Of a stretch of 28,355 nucleotides of DNA, positions 4,237-26,530 are shown in pieces. The stretch is taken from assembly GCA_964491045.1 (NCBI GenBank), contig CAZBFA010000001.1, forward strand, positions 1-28,355, read 5' to 3'. Position 1 is the stretch's first letter. Each line of letters starts with the position of its first letter. Made by a program: the position numbers and the translations under genes. Below the pieces are notes generated by a model. The model saw only the letters and a list, made by a program, of their open reading frames with translations, made no database searches and had not been told where the DNA came from. Origin of the DNA: Candidatus Woesearchaeota archaeon (GTDB lineage: Archaea; Nanobdellota; Nanobdellia; SCGC-AAA011-G17; JACPNG01).

Positions 4237-4259
4237 CTTTTTACTCTTTGCTTGAACAA

Positions 4260-5792
4260 ATGGCATCGCTTAGAAATTTTTCTCCCAGAGAATACCAGGC
4301 AAACATCCTGAAGGCATGCAAAAACAAGAACTGCCTTGTTATACTGCCCACAGGGGTTGGAAAAACGGGCATAGCCTTGCTTTTGGCGCTGGAACGATTG
4401 AATGAATTTGCCCACTCGAAAATACTGTTTTGCTCTCCAACAAAACCATTGTGCCAACAGCACACAGAAACCTTCACAAATAATACTGATCTGAACAAGG
4501 AAGACATACTGCTTTACACTGGCATGTTGAACCCAAAAAACAGGGCAGAATTATTCCAAAACAGCAAGGTGATTATTGCAACGCCGCAAACAATCCAGTC
4601 CGACATTGAAAACAGCAGGATAAATTTGAGCGATTTTTCGCTTTTGATCCTTGATGAGGCGCATAAATCAAAGATGAAGTATGCAAACACATTTGTTGCC
4701 AAGAATTACATTGAAAATGCAAAGAATCCAAGGATACTTGCATTGACAGCATCGCCCGGCAGCACAAAAGAAAAAATCAACGAGATATGCAGCAACCTTT
4801 TTATTGAAGATGTGGAGATAAGGACAGAGGATGATAGTGATGTGAAGCCTTATCTGCAGAAAAAAACAGTTGAGTACATCGGCATCGATCTTGGCAATGA
4901 ATTTGACAGCATAAGAAATCTGTTGAAAGAAGCCTACAAGGAAAAAATAGCAGACCTGAAAAAGCTTGGCATCACAAAACCAACATATCTAATCAACAAA
5001 AGAGACCTTATAATCCTGCAGAAGCAGCTTCAAAAAGAAATAGCCATGAGAAATCCATCTACCTTCTTTGGGCTTTCGCTGGTAGCAAAGCTCCTTAAGT
5101 TAAAATATCTTATAGAGCTCATAGAAACGCAAAGCCTGAAGCCATTCCATAATTTCATGCACAAGTTAAAAACCGACAATACAAAAGCAGCAAAATCCCT
5201 GCTCAATATAAAAGAAGTCATTGAAGCTGAAAAAATAGCAGATAGCCTTGTTGAAAAAGGTATGAAACACCCAAAAATTGAAAAGCTGAACGAGATAATA
5301 AAAGGGCAGTTTTCAGCAAACCCAAAATCAAAAATAATTATATTTGCAAACTACAGGGATACAATTGAAGAAATCATGGAAAATCTGAAGCATATTAAAA
5401 ATTGCCTGCCTGTAAAACTGATAGGCCATAGAGAAGGCATAACCCAGAAGCAGCAGCTGGAAACAATAGGCAAGTTTGACTCCAATGAGTACAACTGCTT
5501 GTTAACAACCTCGATAGGAGAAGAAGGGTTGTCTATGGGCACATTAGACATTGCAATTTTCTACGACAATGTTCCAAGCGCAATTAGGAGAATTCAGAGG
5601 GAAGGCAGAGTGGCAAGAATCAAGCCCGGAAAGATAATATACCTTACTGTTAAAAATTCGATAGATTCAGCATATCACTGGAAGTCAAGAAGGGATGAAA
5701 AAACAATGAAAAGCACAATAAGCAACATAAAAAATAAATTAGGTGAGCAACAGGAATTGGCAAGGTACACAAAAAATGAAAGTGATAGTTGA
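4260..5792 (+). CDS. hef: Hef/FANCM(Mph1)-type SF2 helicase, without a fused nuclease
   Basis: PREYQ, LPTGVGKT (Walker A), PTKPLCQQH, ATPQ, ILDEAH, LTASP, IGEEGL and QREGRVAR. ATG 4260 preferred over TTG 4248. Confidence 0.9.
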   Translation: MASLRNFSPREYQANILKACKNKNCLVILPTGVGKTGIALLLALERLNEFAHSKILFCSPTKPLCQQHTETFTNNTDLNKEDILLYTGMLNPKNRAELFQNSKVIIATPQTIQSDIENSRINLSDFSLLILDEAHKSKMKYANTFVAKNYIENAKNPRILALTASPGSTKEKINEICSNLFIEDVEIRTEDDSDVKPYLQKKTVEYIGIDLGNEFDSIRNLLKEAYKEKIADLKKLGITKPTYLINKRDLIILQKQLQKEIAMRNPSTFFGLSLVAKLLKLKYLIELIETQSLKPFHNFMHKLKTDNTKAAKSLLNIKEVIEAEKIADSLVEKGMKHPKIEKLNEIIKGQFSANPKSKIIIFANYRDTIEEIMENLKHIKNCLPVKLIGHREGITQKQQLETIGKFDSNEYNCLLTTSIGEEGLSMGTLDIAIFYDNVPSAIRRIQREGRVARIKPGKIIYLTVKNSIDSAYHWKSRRDEKTMKSTISNIKNKLGEQQELARYTKNESDS

Positions 5793-6432
5793 TTACCGGG
5801 AAAAGCCATCAGGCATATTGAGAGAGCTTGCAAAGCAGGGCATAGAGGCAGAAGTAAAGGCTCTTGCACTCGGAGATTTTATCATACAGACAAAAGACAG
5901 AAGCGGCAATATCATCAACCTGTGCATAGAAAAGAAAACACAGGATGATTTTCTGAATTCAATAATAGACAAGAGGCTCTTGAGGCAATTAATTGACATG
6001 AAAGAGCAGTTCCAGAATCAGCTCCTTATCATAGAGGGCAATGGTAATTTGTATTCATTAAGAAAATTCCATCCAAATTCAATTAGGGGAACGCTTGCCA
6101 CAATCTCGATAGACCTGCAGATACCAACAATAACCACAAGGTCAATTGCTGACACGGCAGCATTGATAGCAGTGATATCAAAAAGGCTGGAAAAAGACAG
6201 GAAAGACATCAGCTTGATGAACAAAAGAAAGCCCTTGTCCATTAAAGAGCAGCAGGAATTCATCATTGAGGCCCTTCCAGGAATAGGCCCAACACTTTCA
6301 AAATCACTTCTTAATGAATTTAAAAGCATAAAAAGCATAATCAATGCAAAAGAAGATGACTTCAAGAAAATAGACAAGATTGGAGACAAAAAGGCAAAAG
6401 AAATTTTCAATTTAATTCATCATGAGTACTAA
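5776..6432 (+). CDS. ERCC4/XPF-type nuclease with C-terminal (HhH)2 domain (Hef nuclease moiety)
   Basis: IVDYREK, LALGDF, IEKKTQDDF..SIID.RL, LIIEG and LPGIGP...IDKIGDKKA. ATG 5776 overlaps the helicase 3' end in the +1 frame. Confidence 0.9.
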   Translation: MKVIVDYREKPSGILRELAKQGIEAEVKALALGDFIIQTKDRSGNIINLCIEKKTQDDFLNSIIDKRLLRQLIDMKEQFQNQLLIIEGNGNLYSLRKFHPNSIRGTLATISIDLQIPTITTRSIADTAALIAVISKRLEKDRKDISLMNKRKPLSIKEQQEFIIEALPGIGPTLSKSLLNEFKSIKSIINAKEDDFKKIDKIGDKKAKEIFNLIHHEY

Positions 6433-14300: not shown

Positions 14301-16314
14301 TATTATAGATTGTTTCTTTGCTGCAGGCCTTACAGAGCATCAATGGGAAATCAGAGGCAACTTTGCCTTTTTTCAGCGCCTCCTGCATATTTCTCATTTT
14401 GCCCCCTTCCTTGCCGACAGGAAACAAAACCTGGGGGCTGCCTTTTAACCTTCTTATTTTTGCTTTTTCAGGCCTCCCCATTCTCGCTCCTATGAATGTT
14501 CCTGATTTGTCCCTTATTTTGACTCCTGCAAGCTTGTTAACAATGCTTAAGACCTCTTTGTCATCATCAAAGGTAAATATGTCAAGGTGCCTGAAATGAA
14601 AGATTAGCGATTTTGCATCCTCTCCAGCAATCACAACATTTTCCCTTGCAACAACCCTGTGAGGAATGCCCAAAAGTTCCAGTACCCGTTTAGGATCAAT
14701 AGACACATCAATTGGAACCTTAGCCGGCAGTCTCAAAATTATTTCCTTTTCAGATATCTCTGCAGTCTTGTACCAATTCAGGAAACTTAGAAACTGCTCA
14801 GTGCCTATGTCTTTCCAATGGTATGTATACCTTGGATGCATGGGAACATCAAACTGTATTGCTATCCTGCTTGCGTCTTCAAAACTTAGCTTCTTGTATG
14901 GATTCTCAATTATTTCCTTGACCAAGGTATCATCGCATTTTAACTTTGCCAATTCAGCAGCATGCCATTCTTCGTTGTAGCCGCAGGGCACTAATTTATG
15001 AGCCCTATTGAAAAAATCGCCATAATTTACCAATAAATCACCCAAGAACAATATTTCCTCAATATCGTTTCTTATCTTCATTGCCTGCTCAGCAGTCTCA
15101 ATTAAAATAACCTCTCCGCTGTTCAGTTTCACAATAGGCCCTTCCAGCTTGTCGCATACGCTGAGAACGGTTGACTTCCCGGGCCTTTCTGTCTTGAGCT
15201 GGGTCCCGATTGCAAGGTAATCATCCAGAACAGCCATTGTTGCAGGATGCACTGCGTCAGATGAAAATCCAGATGTTCTTGTCCTTCCATACCTTAATCT
15301 AAATCCCCCAATTGCCATTGGATAAGTCAATATGGGCCTTCCAGCAACTAAATCTTTTATGAAATTGTAATCAGGCATCAGCTTAACATTTTCATCAGCA
15401 GTCTTTTCTTTGCTGGCGCTCGCCCTTATCATCTTTTGCAGCTTGATGAAGTCCTCCAGAAATTTCCAGTGCTCCAGCCCAAAATCATTGCCCCATGATT
15501 TGAGCTGATTCCATAATTTAGGCGCTTTTGCGCACAAGCATTCTCCAAGAACCAGGCAAACCCCGTTCCTTATCCTGTTGGTTTCAATCCTGTCAATATC
15601 CTTGTAATTGCTTACCTCTTTTTCTTCGCTTGGATCGCCGTCAATTTGCACAGGCAGCCTTTCAACCAAAAATTTTGCTTCTTCCTCGCTTGGCAGATAC
15701 TGAAGATTGGTTATCTTCTCATGATAATCATAAAGCTCAGCCACCATTCGTTTCACTTCCATCTCGCTAGGGTCGTAAGCATTTAACCCCATTATGCACC
15801 TCACGTAATCAGCAATCAGCACAGAAACAGCGCCCGCAGTGCCGCCAGCGCTTCTTATGGGGCCAGAATAGAATAAAGCAACATAATCCTTTCCATCTTT
15901 TCTTTTCCTGAATTTTAGCTCAACAAAACCTTCTAGCGGGCTTGCAACAACACCAACAGTTATATATGCAATTCCAACTCGAATTCCAACCTCCATCGCC
16001 TCTTTCTTGCTTGAAAATTGGCAGAATTTTTCTCTTGCAGTTTCTTCCGCAAGCTTCAATGCAACTCTCCAGTCCTGCACGCCGTATATTTTCTCTAATT
16101 CCATCAATCGCTCAATGATGTTGCTGTCTTTTATCTGCGGCGCAACAATTGATATTATTCCAACAACTCTTTCGGCCATATTTTTTGCAAGCGGTATCTC
16201 AACAGCAGGTATGGGGTCATGCCCGATGGCTCTTGCTTTTCTCGCGGCATCATAGGCTTTTGCTATATTCCTGTTTATCTCATCAAAATATTCTTTCATT
16301 TTCTCAATCTTCAC
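11314..16314 (-). CDS. polC: DNA polymerase D large subunit DP2, containing an intein with one in-frame TAA (12634-12636)
   Basis: GPIRSAGGTA, GGFRLRYGR, FIGARMGRPEKAK, Zn-finger Cys clusters, catalytic CDGDE, C-terminal CxxC...CxxC and PIP-like QEGLVKWF. Track ORFs 12634..16314 and 11314..12498 share a frame and the 45 codons between them are open. Exteins are 907 + 252 aa. Confidence 0.93.
12073..13593 (-). mobile_element. Intein with LAGLIDADG homing endonuclease at RRD|CDGDE of DP2 (507 codons including the TAA)
   Basis: Starts CVFPTT (block A), TPTH (block B), LLGYYAAEG (block C), AFFDGDG (block E), SYCVEIE (block F), ends EQILNTR. Visibly more AT-rich than the flanking extein DNA. Confidence 0.9.
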
Positions 16315-17962
16315 CAGAAAAATTCATGATTTTCACTTCCCTGGTTTTTAAATTCAATATTGGAACTCTTCCCGGATTTGGATTATTCCCCGTCTTTTCC
16401 TGAAATGAAGTTTTTCCCTGAAAGCAGCTGCAATTTATCAATAGGACATTATTATAATTAACAACATCAGATCTATGCATCTCTCCAGATACAAGTATAT
16501 CAGGCAGCTTGTCTATGAAAAAAGGATCTTCTTCAGTATTTGGCATGTAAACGGTTGATGAATGTGTTGGCGCAAGATGCCTTTTCTGCAGCAAAAATTT
16601 TATCACAGTTGCAGGATTGTCCCTTGCTGAAGCCTGCCTCAACGAATCAACTTCGTCAATGTAATAATGATAGCTTGCCCCATGGTACATTAGAACATTG
16701 AATCCCTCAAAATCTTTTTTGGAATGTATGTTAACCATGCAGGGATTGCTGACCATAATCAGGTTTGGCAGCGCATACAATGCGTGCGCAAATTCCTTGT
16801 CCAATGGGGGCTGTGGTTCGGCTGCCCTTATTGAATCATGCTGCCCTGGAGAGATTATTATTTTGATGTCTTTTCTTATTAGGCTTATGCATTCGGCGGC
16901 GGCATTGTACTGCTGCATTATGTCGCGGAAAAGCAGTTCTTTTTCCTGCCCGGGATAAACTCCAACACCCTCAACAATATCACCGATAATAAACAAATAC
17001 TTCACTTTTGAAGACACTCTTTTTTGCAGGAAACTTCCGCTGTTTCCATTCAGCCAGTCAATAAATTCCAGGAATTCTTTTTTCATGAACAGCTTGCTGC
17101 CAAAATGAAGGTCGCTTATGAAAGCAACGCATGCCTCATCATCGCATTTCTTCAGCTCCTTTGTAAGAGGCACATCGGGGAATATTATCTGTGTTGCAAA
17201 AATTACTCTTCCCCCATAAACGCCAGTAATTCCTAGCACTTCATCGCACACAACATTTTTTCCTGCCTCAGCGGCTTTTCCCTCTTTATTTATTAAAACC
17301 TCTATTGTTCCTGTCGGGTCTTCTACTTTCAGGATTATATTCCCATTTTTTGTAGTCCTCTTGTCATGCACAATCCCTATCAATGCAACTGCTTCTTTTT
17401 CCTGCTTGCCTGCTATCCTGTTTATCGAAACAAGTCCCTGCAGCTCTTGCCTTGATTGCAATAGGTTTTTGATCAGATTATACCTGAGCTTGAAATATTC
17501 AACAAAGTCTTCCACCCCTCTTTTTTTGGGCTCATCTTTATATTCTTTAAGCACGATCACGCTGCTGTAATTTTCATTGGTCTTCTCTTCTTTGATATTA
17601 ACTTTCTCTTCATGCTTTACTTCTTCCAGCATCTTGTCAAGCTTTTTTTTCTCGCCAGTATGGTAACCCAATAGGTCTAGAAATACCTTGTAAGCTTCAT
17701 CATTTTTCCCTTTTTCAATCAGCACCCGTGCCTTTTCAAATTCATTCCAGTTGATGTCAATTTTTGCAAGATTATCTTCTTGCAATTTTGGCATTACCTT
17801 TATCAGGTCCTGGTTTAGCACAGACAATCGGCCATTCAGCTCAGCATCTTTTTTCAAGGAAATTAATAGCTCGGAGGAATCCTTCCCGTCAAACTCATCC
17901 GCAATGTCTGGTGACAGCAAAAATCCGTTTTCAATGAATAGTTTTATGTTTTCTTTGTTCAT
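16304..17962 (-). CDS. polB: DNA polymerase D small subunit DP1 (proofreading exonuclease subunit; not a family-B polymerase)
   Basis: OB domain (EDPTG), ISDLHFGS, GDIVEG.G.YPGQ, PGQHD..R.AEPQP, YHGAS, LLQKRHLAPTH. Overlaps cdc6 (ATGA) and DP2. Confidence 0.93.
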   Translation of the reverse strand: MNKENIKLFIENGFLLSPDIADEFDGKDSSELLISLKKDAELNGRLSVLNQDLIKVMPKLQEDNLAKIDINWNEFEKARVLIEKGKNDEAYKVFLDLLGYHTGEKKKLDKMLEEVKHEEKVNIKEEKTNENYSSVIVLKEYKDEPKKRGVEDFVEYFKLRYNLIKNLLQSRQELQGLVSINRIAGKQEKEAVALIGIVHDKRTTKNGNIILKVEDPTGTIEVLINKEGKAAEAGKNVVCDEVLGITGVYGGRVIFATQIIFPDVPLTKELKKCDDEACVAFISDLHFGSKLFMKKEFLEFIDWLNGNSGSFLQKRVSSKVKYLFIIGDIVEGVGVYPGQEKELLFRDIMQQYNAAAECISLIRKDIKIIISPGQHDSIRAAEPQPPLDKEFAHALYALPNLIMVSNPCMVNIHSKKDFEGFNVLMYHGASYHYYIDEVDSLRQASARDNPATVIKFLLQKRHLAPTHSSTVYMPNTEEDPFFIDKLPDILVSGEMHRSDVVNYNNVLLINCSCFQGKTSFQEKTGNNPNPGRVPILNLKTREVKIMNFSGED

Positions 17963-19197
17963 ACTGCAAGGCCCTCTTTTAGCAGGTCATCTACATTTTT
18001 TAGTATCTCTTCAGGCATTGCCAGGCAGACTTCTCGCGTCCTTCCATACCTCCCTTTGCTTATCACTTTTGTAGTTATTATGCCCAGCATTTCAAGCTCA
18101 GAGATAATGTCGCATAACCTTCTTTGTGTCAGGGGCCTTAACCCTACTTTGAAGCATAACTCCTTGTACACTTCATATATCTCACCAGTAAAAATTGGCA
18201 TGTTGTTTGTTATCTTGTTGTGTATGCGTATTATGGAATAAAGAGCAAGCTTGCATTGTTTTGGCTGCGTGCTTATTATATTTGTGAATAAATCTGTCTC
18301 TATCTTGTCTTCTGCAGTATCCAGGTCACCCACTTTTATGGCATTTTTTCCCCTCCTTTCTGCAATCTCACCAGCAACTCTTAAAAGGTCCAATGCTCTT
18401 CTTGCATCGCCATGCTCTTTTGCAGCATAGGCAGCGCATTTTTCAATAACACCTTCTTCCAGCACTCCTTCTTTAAATGCTGTTTTCACTCTCTGCCTTA
18501 ATATGTCCTGAATCTGCAATGCGTTGTAAGATGGGAATGTTACCTCTTCCTCACCCAGGCTGCTTTTTACTCTTGGATCAAGGCTTTGCGTAAAAACAAG
18601 GTTATTTGAAATTCCTATCAATGATATCTCTGAACTTTTTAATTCAGAATTTAATCTTGTAAGATTGTAAAGTATGCCATCCCCTATCTTTTGCCCAAGC
18701 TGATCTATCTCATCCAGGATTATTATGAGCAGAACCTTGTCTCGCTCTATTGCCTTAATGAACATCTTGTAAATTTCAACAGTAGGAAGCCCTGTTGCAG
18801 GTATTTCCTCGCCAAACTCGCTTGCTAATTGCGCAATCAGCCTGTATTCTGTATCAGCTATTCTTTTTAGCTTGCAATTAAGATAAATAACTTTGAACTT
18901 GCGGTATCCTGCTTTTTCTAATTTTGAGGAATTTTTTTCTGCAGTTGAAATCATATCATTGCATATATTCTGTATTGTCAGGCTTTTTCCAGTGCCTGTT
19001 TGGCCATAAATGAAAACATTTGAGGGCTTTTCTCCTTTTATTGCAGGAGCCATGATGCTGTTAAGCTGTTGTATCTGCTCTTCCCTGTGCAGGATTGTTT
19101 TCGGGGTATAATTTGACTGCAATACTCTTTTATTAATAAACAAAGGCTCTTGTTTTAAATAGTTTTCAAAAAAATTAGTCAGCCCTTTTTGCCCCAT
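17959..19197 (-). CDS. cdc6: Orc1/Cdc6 replication initiator
   Basis: Y.P..ILHRE.QI, GQTGTGKS (Walker A), ILDEID, RVKSSL, F.SY...QI.DIL..R, HGDARRALDLLR and C-terminal wHTH ending GRYGRTR. Confidence 0.96.
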   Translation of the reverse strand: MGQKGLTNFFENYLKQEPLFINKRVLQSNYTPKTILHREEQIQQLNSIMAPAIKGEKPSNVFIYGQTGTGKSLTIQNICNDMISTAEKNSSKLEKAGYRKFKVIYLNCKLKRIADTEYRLIAQLASEFGEEIPATGLPTVEIYKMFIKAIERDKVLLIIILDEIDQLGQKIGDGILYNLTRLNSELKSSEISLIGISNNLVFTQSLDPRVKSSLGEEEVTFPSYNALQIQDILRQRVKTAFKEGVLEEGVIEKCAAYAAKEHGDARRALDLLRVAGEIAERRGKNAIKVGDLDTAEDKIETDLFTNIISTQPKQCKLALYSIIRIHNKITNNMPIFTGEIYEVYKELCFKVGLRPLTQRRLCDIISELEMLGIITTKVISKGRYGRTREVCLAMPEEILKNVDDLLKEGLAV

Positions 19198-19265: not shown

Positions 19266-19287
19266 ACACCTTCATTTCCTATGGAAG
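19266..19287 (-). promoter_or_regulatory. ORB-like box 1 (CTTCCATAGGAAATGAAGGTGT)
   Basis: Fits the TTCC-N3-GGAAA...AAGG ORB pattern; lies just upstream of the cdc6 TATA (19237-19230). Confidence 0.75.
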
Positions 19288-19588
19288 ATCTTATTTATGT
19301 TTTCAGCTAATAAACTTTGTTCACTACTTAAAAAAGTCATAAAAAATAACCCTTAAACAGTTAATATTATAAAAACATGGCAAAAAAACGAACAAAACAG
19401 CTAATACAGAATAATAACAAAGGCAAATTAAAAAAGATGAACAAATAGTAAGTAAAATATAAAAATATCATTATATTATATATGATTTGGCATTTAACAT
19501 AAAAATCAGCCTTTATATTAAATATTAAGTGTATATAGGGCATAATAAACTAATCAGATAACTCCAAACGAAACAATGGTGTGACATC

Positions 19589-19605
19589 CTTCCATCAGAA
19601 ATGAA
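19589..19605 (+). promoter_or_regulatory. ORB-like box 2 (CTTCCATCAGAAATGAA), no G-string
   Basis: 15/17 identical to box 1, in inverted orientation across the AT-rich stretch. Confidence 0.6.
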
Positions 19606-19664
19606 ATCAAATAATCTTGTTTTTTTGCACAATCTTTATAACTTTCTATGCTATTGCTATGCTT

Positions 19665-21346: not shown

Positions 21347-21610
21347 ATGGGAGACGAAGAAAAAAGATCGGCAAAACACCTTATGGGAAAGGTGGTTGTA
21401 ACGCGTTCTGGAAAGCGTTTTGGTGAAGTTTCAAACCTCTCTTTTGAGACAAGAACAGGCGAGCTCATGCATGTGGTTCTTAAAAATCCAACAACCTTTG
21501 CTCAGTCGCTGGAGCTTGAAAAAGATGCAAGAAATAACCTTCTGATACCATTTTCATCTGTTGTTGCTGTTGGCGACTTTATAGTCATTGCAGAAGAAGA
21601 GATAATCTAG
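21347..21610 (+). CDS. PRC-barrel domain protein (CdpB-like), second paralogue
   Basis: LMGKVVVTRSGKRFGEVSNLSFETRTGELMHVVL...LLIPFSSVVAVGDFIVI. Confidence 0.88.
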   Translation: MGDEEKRSAKHLMGKVVVTRSGKRFGEVSNLSFETRTGELMHVVLKNPTTFAQSLELEKDARNNLLIPFSSVVAVGDFIVIAEEEII

Positions 21611-25238: not shown

Positions 25239-25299
25239 GCACATCCTAAGCACACTCTGAGCACACTCTGAGCACACTCTGAGCACATCCTAAGCACAT
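25239..25299 (+). repeat. Tandem 11-bp direct-repeat array
   Basis: GCACATCCTAA, GCACACTCTGA x3, GCACATCCTAA, then partial GCACAT, ending 3 nt before ATG 25303. Confidence 0.9.
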
Positions 25300-25510
25300 A
25301 AAATGTGGAAAGACGTACTATCCCTCAAAAATGACCTTAGGCTTTCTTTTTCCAAGGTTAAAGAACATATAACCTCATTAGAAGACCAGGTGAAAGCACT
25401 AAAAGAACAGGTTAAAACCCTTCAAAACGCTTTGGAAAGCTCAAACTCTCAAAATATGCCTGAATTGCCACCTTTGCCCATTCCTGTGCCAGAATCTCCT
25501 AAAGAAGTAA

Positions 25511-25531
25511 GTTCCATGGAAATGAAGGGGT
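25511..25531 (+). promoter_or_regulatory. ORB-like box 3 inside coding sequence (GTTCCATGGAAATGAAGGGGT)
   Basis: Shares TTCCAT..GGAAATGAAGG with box 1 and has a full G-string, but a 2-nt rather than 3-nt TTCC/GGAA spacer. Confidence 0.6.
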
Positions 25532-25533
25532 CT

Positions 25534-25584
25534 ATTCATTCATTCATTCATTCAAACATTCATTCATTCAACAAACAAGCATTC
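25534..25584 (+). repeat. Tetranucleotide microsatellite (ATTC)5-AAAC-(ATTC)3-AAC-AAAC-AAGC-ATTC
   Basis: Read directly; it starts 2 nt after the G-string of box 3. Confidence 0.85.
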
Positions 25585-25924
25585 AACAACTGCTCTCAAC
25601 CATTACAAAACAAGAGCTTCTGGTGCTTTTGACTATAGTTCAATTAGAAGAGGAACTTGGCACTATAACTTACTCTATATTGTCTGATAAGCTTAAACTC
25701 TCACAGGGGTGCATTAGGGGGTATATAACCTCATTAATGCGCAAAGGAGCCCCAATTTATAAAGAGAAATACAATAATAAGATAACGCTCATAAAAACAA
25801 CCTCTCATTTTAAAGCTACAGACAAACAAGCTCTCATTAGCTCATTTTACAGCATTGATCCTTATCAAAAGCGTCTTGATTAACTCTCACTTTTATGCAA
25901 AATAATCAAAAATGCCATAAAATC

Positions 25925-26530
25925 TCATTTTTGGGCCTTTTTTACTAGGGCATTTCTCTCCTTTAAGATCTCATTTTTCAGTTTTTCATCAATAAAAAAG
26001 CGTTTTTTCCCGTTTCTTTCAATATATTCCATCAATAATCCCTCATTTTTTTGTTTTATATTGTTTACTTGCCCTCTTATTGTTGATTTGTCTCTCCCCA
26101 CCATGATGCTCAAGTCATCATAAGTTAATTTCATTTCATTATTCAGCAGAATGCTTATTATGGCTCGTTCCATAGGGGTTAGATTTTTAGTCCATTTATC
26201 CCCCCTTCTGCCTGTTTGGACAACAACAGATGGTTGTTTTAAACGGCTGTCCGTTTGTGTTTGTCCAAACGGCTGTCCAAACACCCTCTCGTCTTTCTGG
26301 TTTGCCCCGAAAGCCTCGTTGAACAATAACTCTAATTGATCAATTCTCTCCTGTAATCTGAATAATTCAGCATTTTTGCTCCTATGACCATCATGTAATT
26401 TGTCTATTTTTGAATTAATATGTGTAATATCTGTTTTAACATTTAGAAATGACCTGTGCAAAGAAGAGTGTATTCTGTCAAATTTCTCGCTTAACTCCTC
26501 ATACTCTCTTTTTTTCACCCAAAAAAACAT
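25925..26530 (-). CDS. Coiled-coil/low-complexity linker/C-terminal HTH protein
   Basis: N-terminal heptads (SFLNVKTDITHINSKID), Q/T/G-rich linker, then LTPMERAIISILL..EMKLTYDDLSIMVGRDKSTIRGQVNNIKQK...KKRFFI. Confidence 0.8.
   Translation of the reverse strand: MFFWVKKREYEELSEKFDRIHSSLHRSFLNVKTDITHINSKIDKLHDGHRSKNAELFRLQERIDQLELLFNEAFGANQKDERVFGQPFGQTQTDSRLKQPSVVVQTGRRGDKWTKNLTPMERAIISILLNNEMKLTYDDLSIMVGRDKSTIRGQVNNIKQKNEGLLMEYIERNGKKRFFIDEKLKNEILKERNALVKKAQK

Follow-up and report, generated by a model that had tools for sequence, protein, structure and literature searches.

The question raised by this locus is what an ORB-type box is doing inside a protein-coding gene, about 6 kb from cdc6/oriC, and at the very position where the reading frame of that gene is lost. 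The window, that is, the whole stretch of 28,355 nucleotides that was analysed, is contig C1 of an assembly of 915 kb in 172 contigs with 38% GC. Within it, the box lies in the overlap between an ORF at 25303-25632 and an open frame at 25503-25883, which are treated here as the two halves of one split gene, gene A. The features of this gene and its surroundings are the following.

25239 to 25298, plus strand: 11-nt tandem repeats just upstream of the gene A start codon.
25303 to 25632, plus strand, frame 1: ORF1, the N-terminal long helix and linker of gene A, out of frame past 25517.
25503 to 25883, plus strand, frame 0: open frame that covers what is left of the linker of gene A, together with its winged-helix (wHTH) domain (listed ORF 25623-25883).
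25512 to 25531, plus strand: ORB-type box with a shortened spacer, recognised by sequence and matrix score: TTCC (25512-15), AT (25516-17), GGAA (25518-21), ATGAA, GGGG (25527-30), T.
25516 to 25517, plus strand: site of the missing base, where the closest relative reads ATC (Ile); the only frame-changing gap in the gene.
25534 to 25570, plus strand: (ATTC)n microsatellite, next after the G-string; in relatives this place always has a short-period repeat.
25925 to 26530, minus strand: gene B, intact and convergent; it resembles a paralogue (helix, linker, HTH), and relatives keep it in synteny with gene A.

It was observed that one base added anywhere within 25503-25630 joins both frames and, since the (ATTC)n tract lies in the same frame overlap, the site of the frameshift had to be established by comparison with relatives. 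Orthologues were found as single intact ORFs of ~200-230 aa, matching both halves, in 51 of the 60 relatives of the same family/order, and nine closer proteins from public metagenomes were likewise intact and spanned both halves. The best of these proteins, P0001, with 74% amino acid identity, reads ...PPKEESSIGNEGVYSFIHSFKQSFIQQTSIQNLLSKITKQELL, to which correspond, in the window, ...PKEVSS in frame 1 and GNEGVYSFIHSFKHSFIQQTSIQQLLSTITKQELL in frame 0. In the DNA alignment with the closest relative (L042), the sole frame-changing gap in the whole gene follows 25517, where AGTTCCAT-GGAA in the window faces AGTTCCATCGGAA, the spacer differing by one base (with wider context, AGTTCCAT-GGAAATG versus AGTTCCATCGGAAATG). 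The preliminary description had placed the box within a gene and in exact coincidence with its frameshift, and had proposed that an added base would fuse the ORFs through TCC ATN GGA AAT GAA GGG GTC, read as S-(I/M)-G-N-E-G-V; the alignment bore out both claims. Two other locations for the shift were considered and ruled out. A frameshift within the (ATTC)n tract was discarded because the tract has the same length in the window and in the closest relative, and because 73 nt separate GGGGT from the first wHTH codons in the window and in L003 alike. A later shift point, suggested by the similarity of frame 1 to the G011 protein (KGS..HSNIHSF..KQAFN), was discarded because G011 reads the box in the other phase.

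The AlphaFold2 model of the family displayed a long helix (residues 2-50), a linker (51-90) with pLDDT below 50, and a wHTH domain (91-185) with pLDDT above 90, so that the box and the repeat encode a linker predicted to be disordered. HTH_11 matched 23 of 31 family members below the Pfam cut-off, and the winged-helix fold is considered generic, since the top Foldseek match was MepR, with an E value of only 6e-4 and a TM of 0.35-0.5. The absence of the spacer base would both distort the half-site spacing of the box and shift the frame, and the outcome in this assembly would be a 109-aa N-terminal product and an orphaned wHTH frame.

Regarding the box as it stands, positions 25510-25539 read agTTCCATGGAAATGAAGGGGTctattcat, and TTCCATGGAA, at 25512-25521, forms a perfect 10-nt palindrome, just as had been reported from the sequence. 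The spacer is of 2 nt here versus 3 nt in relatives, and TTCC-N2-GGAAATGAA occurs a single time in the 915-kb genome. The ORB core was described as TTCC-N3-GGAA, in which 'TTCC' and 'GAA' are invariant (PMC1904270). This core was found in all orthologous copies, whereas the window carries TTCC-N2-GGAA, and for this reason the window copy is regarded as a mutated ORB. The G-rich 3′ extension is present, as ATGAAGGGGT at 25522-25531, with GGGG invariant among orthologues. The site had also been announced as the strongest G-string ORB box, which holds if the spacer base is present, since the restored box reached 34.3 of 36.1 bits, the top score in the genome with a matrix built from the orthologous sites. 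It does not hold for the unaltered box, which scored 16.1 bits with the same matrix, versus 28.9 for box 1 at oriC.

The conservation of this site was found to reside in the DNA rather than in the peptide. Orthologues carry AGTTCCA-NN-GGAAAT-N-AAGGGGT at the corresponding place, and among 26 orthologues from different genera TTCCA-NN-GGAAAT-N-AAGGGGT was kept at 80-100% per position, with unconserved flanks. An S(T/I)GNEGV motif, which the preliminary description had mentioned for DPANN hypothetical proteins, proved to be real: the orthologous peptides read SSIGNEGV, SSKGNEGV, SSTGNKGV, SSIGNQGV, and similar variants. However, it is highly improbable that the ORB likeness is a by-product of this SSxGNxGV peptide, even though the peptide is conserved in most orthologues, or a matter of chance. 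The synonymous sites over the box were invariant, unlike those of other conserved residues: in genes encoding S-S-x-G-N-x-G-V, the codons were TCC in 22/22, GGA in 20/20, AAT in 20/20, and GGG in 22/22 to 24/24 cases, whereas elsewhere in the same genes TCC accounted for 14% of Ser codons, and GGA, AAT, and GGG for 27%, 59%, and 27% of their synonymous sets, respectively. As a control, mixed codons were used in 29 other columns in which the residue was at least 80% identical (e.g., 5-6 codons for Leu and 4 for Pro), the commonest codon reaching 0.29-0.77 in all but one of them. Moreover, four genomes keep the box DNA yet read a different peptide, V-P-Q-E-x-K-G-S, in a second phase inside an intact ORF (G001, G011, and G039, and in degenerate form G035). 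DNA identity over the box and the repeat peaked at 0.90-1.00 to L042 and at 0.77-0.87 to L003, and identity to L003 dropped to 0.13-0.5 just upstream of the box; this peak sits within the least conserved part of gene A, in the region predicted to be disordered. Selection on the peptide cannot explain this conservation, given the frozen synonymous sites, the two reading phases, and the island of DNA identity in a disordered linker. These results supported the proposal, already advanced from the sequence, that the DNA at the box is dual-coded. They also place the constraint at the DNA level and, since the box is conserved independently of the frame, the DNA layer is considered the selected one. 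Had the orthologues used varied codons destroying the box, the proposal would have fallen; their codons over the GNEGV region were instead frozen and the box was kept.

The box is also specific in its distribution. A search with the pattern TCCANNGGAANNNNNGGGG, which has the 3-nt spacer, returned 52 matches in 46 of the 60 whole relative genomes, and the reversed-pattern control gave none in all 61 genomes, which also speaks against chance. These matches corresponded to the orthologous gene, with few others adjoining cdc6, and amounted to about one per genome. When a looser ORB pattern was applied to the relatives, one to three sites per genome were found, almost only at oriC and in gene A. 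In the whole order, the box was present in 118 of 151 genomes, and strong full-length homologues with the box inside were also recovered from another family of the class. A 2-nt spacer in gene A was observed in only one of the 151 genomes, namely that of the window; the four other matches with a 2-nt spacer were located elsewhere than gene A and had no GGAAAT core.

The replication origin with which this box is to be compared lies in the same window and is composed as follows.

17959 to 19197, minus strand: orc1/cdc6 initiator gene (Pfam: Cdc6_C 1.5e-28, Cdc6_lid 1e-24).
19266 to 19286, minus strand: oriC ORB box 1, TTCCATAGGAAATGAAGGTGT, ~70 nt upstream of cdc6.
19287 to 19589, no strand assigned: AT-rich stretch of ~300 nt, GC 0.21-0.25, between the inverted boxes; predicted oriC unwinding region.
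19590 to 19607, plus strand: oriC ORB box 2, TTCCATCAGAAATGAAAT, inverted to box 1, on the far side of the AT-rich stretch.

This arrangement is that of a textbook origin, so that 19266-19607 is predicted to be an origin of the canonical archaeal oriC1 type. A weaker third ORB-like box, CTCCAAACGAAACAATGGTGT, with 14.6 bits, was noticed at 19562-19582, where it borders box 2 on the inner side, at the right-hand end of oriC. Intergenic, inverted pairs of boxes around an AT-rich element beside orc1/cdc6 were not what was found in gene A, where the box is coding, solitary, and 6 kb off. The local GC at the in-gene box was 0.34-0.40, and neither an AT-rich trough close to gene A nor a partner box in inverted orientation was detected. 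Since it stands alone and has no AT-rich unwinding stretch, the in-gene box is not a canonical origin, and a second origin at gene A, which was considered as a candidate, was ruled out on the same grounds.

Gene A nevertheless keeps company with the origin. It was located on the cdc6 contig, 4.5-15 kb away, in about 35 relatives. Wherever the position of the oriC boxes could be assigned, namely in 19 cdc6-to-gene stretches, its direction is away from oriC. In the 20 cdc6-to-gene stretches that were scanned, ORB-like boxes occurred almost only upstream of cdc6, plus once inside gene A. The cdc6-flanking stretches of relatives revealed a syntenic block formed by ArgRS, a small wHTH gene, a 144-aa gene, gene A, and gene B. 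Also near oriC, an 87-aa ORF at 21347-21610 was recognised with 53-69% identity in 20 of 20 such stretches. In gene B, the coding sequence contains, at 26166-26181 on the plus strand, GTTCCATAGGGGTTAG, which resembles an ORB half-site fused to a G-string, and the linker contains TTTGGACAGCCGTTT repeats; no full ORB box was found in this gene.

The two kinds of box differ in the G-string. Within the window (19266-19607) and loci L022-L041, the oriC boxes read GGTG(T/G) in nearly all relatives, versus GGGGT for the in-gene box in all of them, and the small number of oriC boxes matching the GGGG pattern results from the boxes beside cdc6 mostly carrying GGTG. From their sequences, these look like two classes of ORB in one genome, and the in-gene box is under stronger nucleotide-level constraint than the origin's own boxes.

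Other ORB-like sequences were noticed on contigs outside the window in the same genome (G000). Three contig ends (C4:60-78, C20:23-41, and C159:192-210) carry the 19-mer of oriC box 1 (TTCCATAGGAAATGAAGGT) in its exact form, and related sites without a full 19-mer match were found at C19:2651-2853 and C111:280-368. The recurring 19-mer covers the last codons and the stop (..KNFP*) of a multi-copy gene family of ~270 aa and extends into the start region of three different downstream genes. This recurrence is too long for chance, and the looser ORB pattern TTCCANNGGAAATNANGG displayed no comparable multi-copy spread in the 60 relatives. Another ORB-like box, TTCCAATGGAAATGGTGGTGT, of 18.8 bits, was identified at C7:8886-8906, adjoining GGGGTGTCGG repeats and a run of N, where a 362-aa gene begins whose N-terminus resembles an HTH; this box may represent another initiator site or an integrated element.

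Concerning the protein that would recognise the in-gene box, the comparisons favour the reading that the site is probably a local copy of an old, cis-acting, coding-embedded ORB element, with Orc1/Cdc6 as its most likely binder, and with a spacer base missing in the assembly. Such an element would consist of the full ORB-type box AGTTCCA-NN-GGAAAT-N-AAGGGGT and a short-period microsatellite, in the linker-coding part of gene A. Orc1/Cdc6 would bind the in-gene box as an outlying initiator site, as at the oriC boxes, and the protein frame would merely ride on the DNA element. Binding by Orc1/Cdc6 is suggested by the match both to experimentally bound ORBs and to the cdc6-adjacent boxes that these genomes carry. 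In Pyrococcus, ORB1, TTCCAGTGGAAATGAAACTCTGGGGGG, binds Cdc6 (PMC1904270), and the core of the in-gene box matches the Cdc6-bound Pyrococcus ORBs. However, the G-string leaves room for a different binder, for example the second Orc1 paralogue, encoded at G000:C5:6742-7530, or the wHTH product, since GGGG is always found in the gene and GGTG nearly always at oriC, although GGT GTN would encode the same Gly-Val. The conserved box could then serve, as an operator or in a centromere-like manner, not Orc1/Cdc6 but the wHTH product of the gene itself, gene B, or the second Orc1 paralogue. The constant linkage of the box to a repeat array and to wHTH genes is consistent with this, as is the observation in Sulfolobus that non-initiator proteins bind extra origin motifs (UBP, ucm motif; PMC12141716), and a parS site within a partition gene would provide an analogy. 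Nonetheless, the core TTCC-N3-GGAA-AT-N-AA matches the cdc6-adjacent boxes of the same genomes as well as the experimentally bound ORBs, and the general ORB pattern in relatives is confined almost entirely to oriC and gene A, so that another binder is considered rather unlikely, at perhaps one chance in a handful, and Orc1/Cdc6 is retained as the probable one.

The repeats attached to the box may involve a further component. The unit that follows the box varies by lineage, being ATTC, CACT, GCAC, CAAA, TCAA, GACA, or 11-12-mers. By analogy with UBP and the ucm motif, a second bound factor is suggested by the box being always joined to a short-period repeat with a lineage-specific unit. One 11-mer, CACATCCTAAG, belongs to the array upstream of gene A and was also seen as the repeat following the in-gene box in the linker of L036 (G031), and, judging from this sequence, the promoter repeats and the post-box repeats may be the same kind of site. 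A more tentative proposal, which we would regard as appreciably less likely than the Orc1/Cdc6 reading, is that in Woesearchaeota and their relatives the box and microsatellite together form an element with a function on the chromosome. The origin would have in it an outpost to which the initiator binds (serving, e.g., in licensing, as a roadblock, or in a centromere-like manner); this outpost would couple the expression of an origin-proximal DNA-binding protein to Orc1 occupancy and would be kept independently of the frame. In this proposal, indels could be compensated through the period-4 repeat, so that the frame is restored, which would account for both reading phases among lineages, and the present genome would be a natural double knock-out of site and protein.

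Whether the missing base belongs to the organism is a separate matter. It may be an artefact of assembly or sequencing, or a minor variant picked by the assembler, the gene and the box of the organism being intact; this is a serious possibility, although somewhat short of an even chance. It is favoured by the 2-nt spacer in gene A being confined, among the 151 genomes of the order, to that of the window, by the signs of strong selection on both gene A and the box, and by the reads: in the Logan contigs of the three runs that contain this DNA, depth was only ~6, and the contigs broke before the site, ending at 25468 and resuming at 25695, with none across 25469-25694. In addition, a look-up of the exact ORF1 product in public assemblies gave no match, so that no independently called gene has it. 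On the other hand, CCATGG is not a homopolymer, the usual context of such errors. An error-prone assembly was also considered, in view of another apparent frameshift at 5743, and rejected. That frameshift lies in the Hef helicase/nuclease (4248-6432), whose same split into ~505-515 and ~230 aa was found in 10 of 16 relatives, with the gene fused in 4; it is a natural two-gene split common to many relatives, and it gives no sign of an error-prone assembly. Also against an artefact, the deletion makes the perfect 10-nt palindrome TTCCATGGAA out of the quasi-palindrome TTCCATNGGAA, and template switching at quasi-palindromes is a known route of real mutation yielding perfect palindromes. From this we can only infer that the deletion would be a change of the template-switch type.

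It had further been suggested that one indel would toggle both the site geometry and the HTH protein. The idea that the indel represents one position of a reversible switch, by which protein and site would undergo phase variation, could draw on the period-4 microsatellite 3 nt downstream, of which one gained unit would restore the frame, and on the box being read in differing frames between lineages, which indicates that frame changes around it occurred in evolution. However, the indel sits in the non-repetitive spacer, which offers no slippage tract, and the repeat tract has the length of that of the closest relative. The 2-nt form in gene A was absent from the 150 other genomes of the order, and every orthologue read through, in about 30 genomes, was an intact ORF; internal stops flagged in G150 and G054 were false alarms, both genes being intact on reading. 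With no other 2-nt form in gene A and with intact orthologues, the toggle found no support, and a switch is very improbable. By sequence comparison, the indel is no switch but a deletion that occurred once, or else an error of the assembly.

These findings have a bearing beyond the present genome. To our knowledge, replication control in DPANN archaea is known from sequence only, and the literature searched contained no paper dealing with the ORBs of DPANN archaea, Woesearchaeota included. A box that is recognisable in well over a hundred genomes offers a concrete and cheap target for biochemistry, as well as a natural example of overlapping codes for a protein and a DNA site. The window adds to this a unique mutant allele and the two-phase evidence, and if the deletion is real, both the element and the protein could be lost in this population.

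Some likeness to known systems was found in three directions. Simple-sequence contingency loci mediate phase variation in bacteria by tetranucleotide repeats. The present locus resembles them in having a period-4 repeat within the coding sequence, beside a frameshift, but differs from them in that the frameshift lies outside the repeat and no OFF states occurred among the orthologues read through. In the canonical archaeal oriC, as described for Pyrococcus, Sulfolobus, and haloarchaea (the latter with G-string ORBs), inverted ORBs flank an AT-rich unwinding element beside orc1/cdc6 (PMC4010727). The orthologous copies of the in-gene box share with ORBs of the canonical oriC1 type the core TTCC-N3-GGAA and the G-rich 3′ end, whereas the in-gene box is solitary and coding, has neither an inverted partner nor an AT-rich stretch, and carries GGGG instead of GGTG.

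The closest precedent comes from the Thermococcales, in which dp1, encoding the PolD small subunit, contains a cluster of ORB/mini-ORB boxes at a few kb from oriC/cdc6 (Matsunaga et al. 2007, NAR 35:3214, PMC1904270). In Pyrococcus, the dp1 boxes were bound by Cdc6/Orc1 in vivo and in vitro, their role being still open (PMC1904270). As in the Thermococcales, an ORB-type box is found here in a coding gene within a few kb of oriC and is conserved across the order. In contrast to dp1, binding here is a prediction, the host gene, of the helix-linker-wHTH type, is uncharacterised and lies across oriC from dp1, and the dp1 of the window (16304-17962) contained no matrix hits above 12 bits. Instead of a cluster, gene A contains one full G-string box, which always precedes a microsatellite and is read in two frames among lineages, TTCCNNNGGAA being present in the window only at box 1. 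An origin box inside a gene near oriC is a known kind of element, from the Thermococcales; what is new is the gene that hosts it, the presence of one G-string box only, the microsatellite attached to this box, and the conservation independent of frame.
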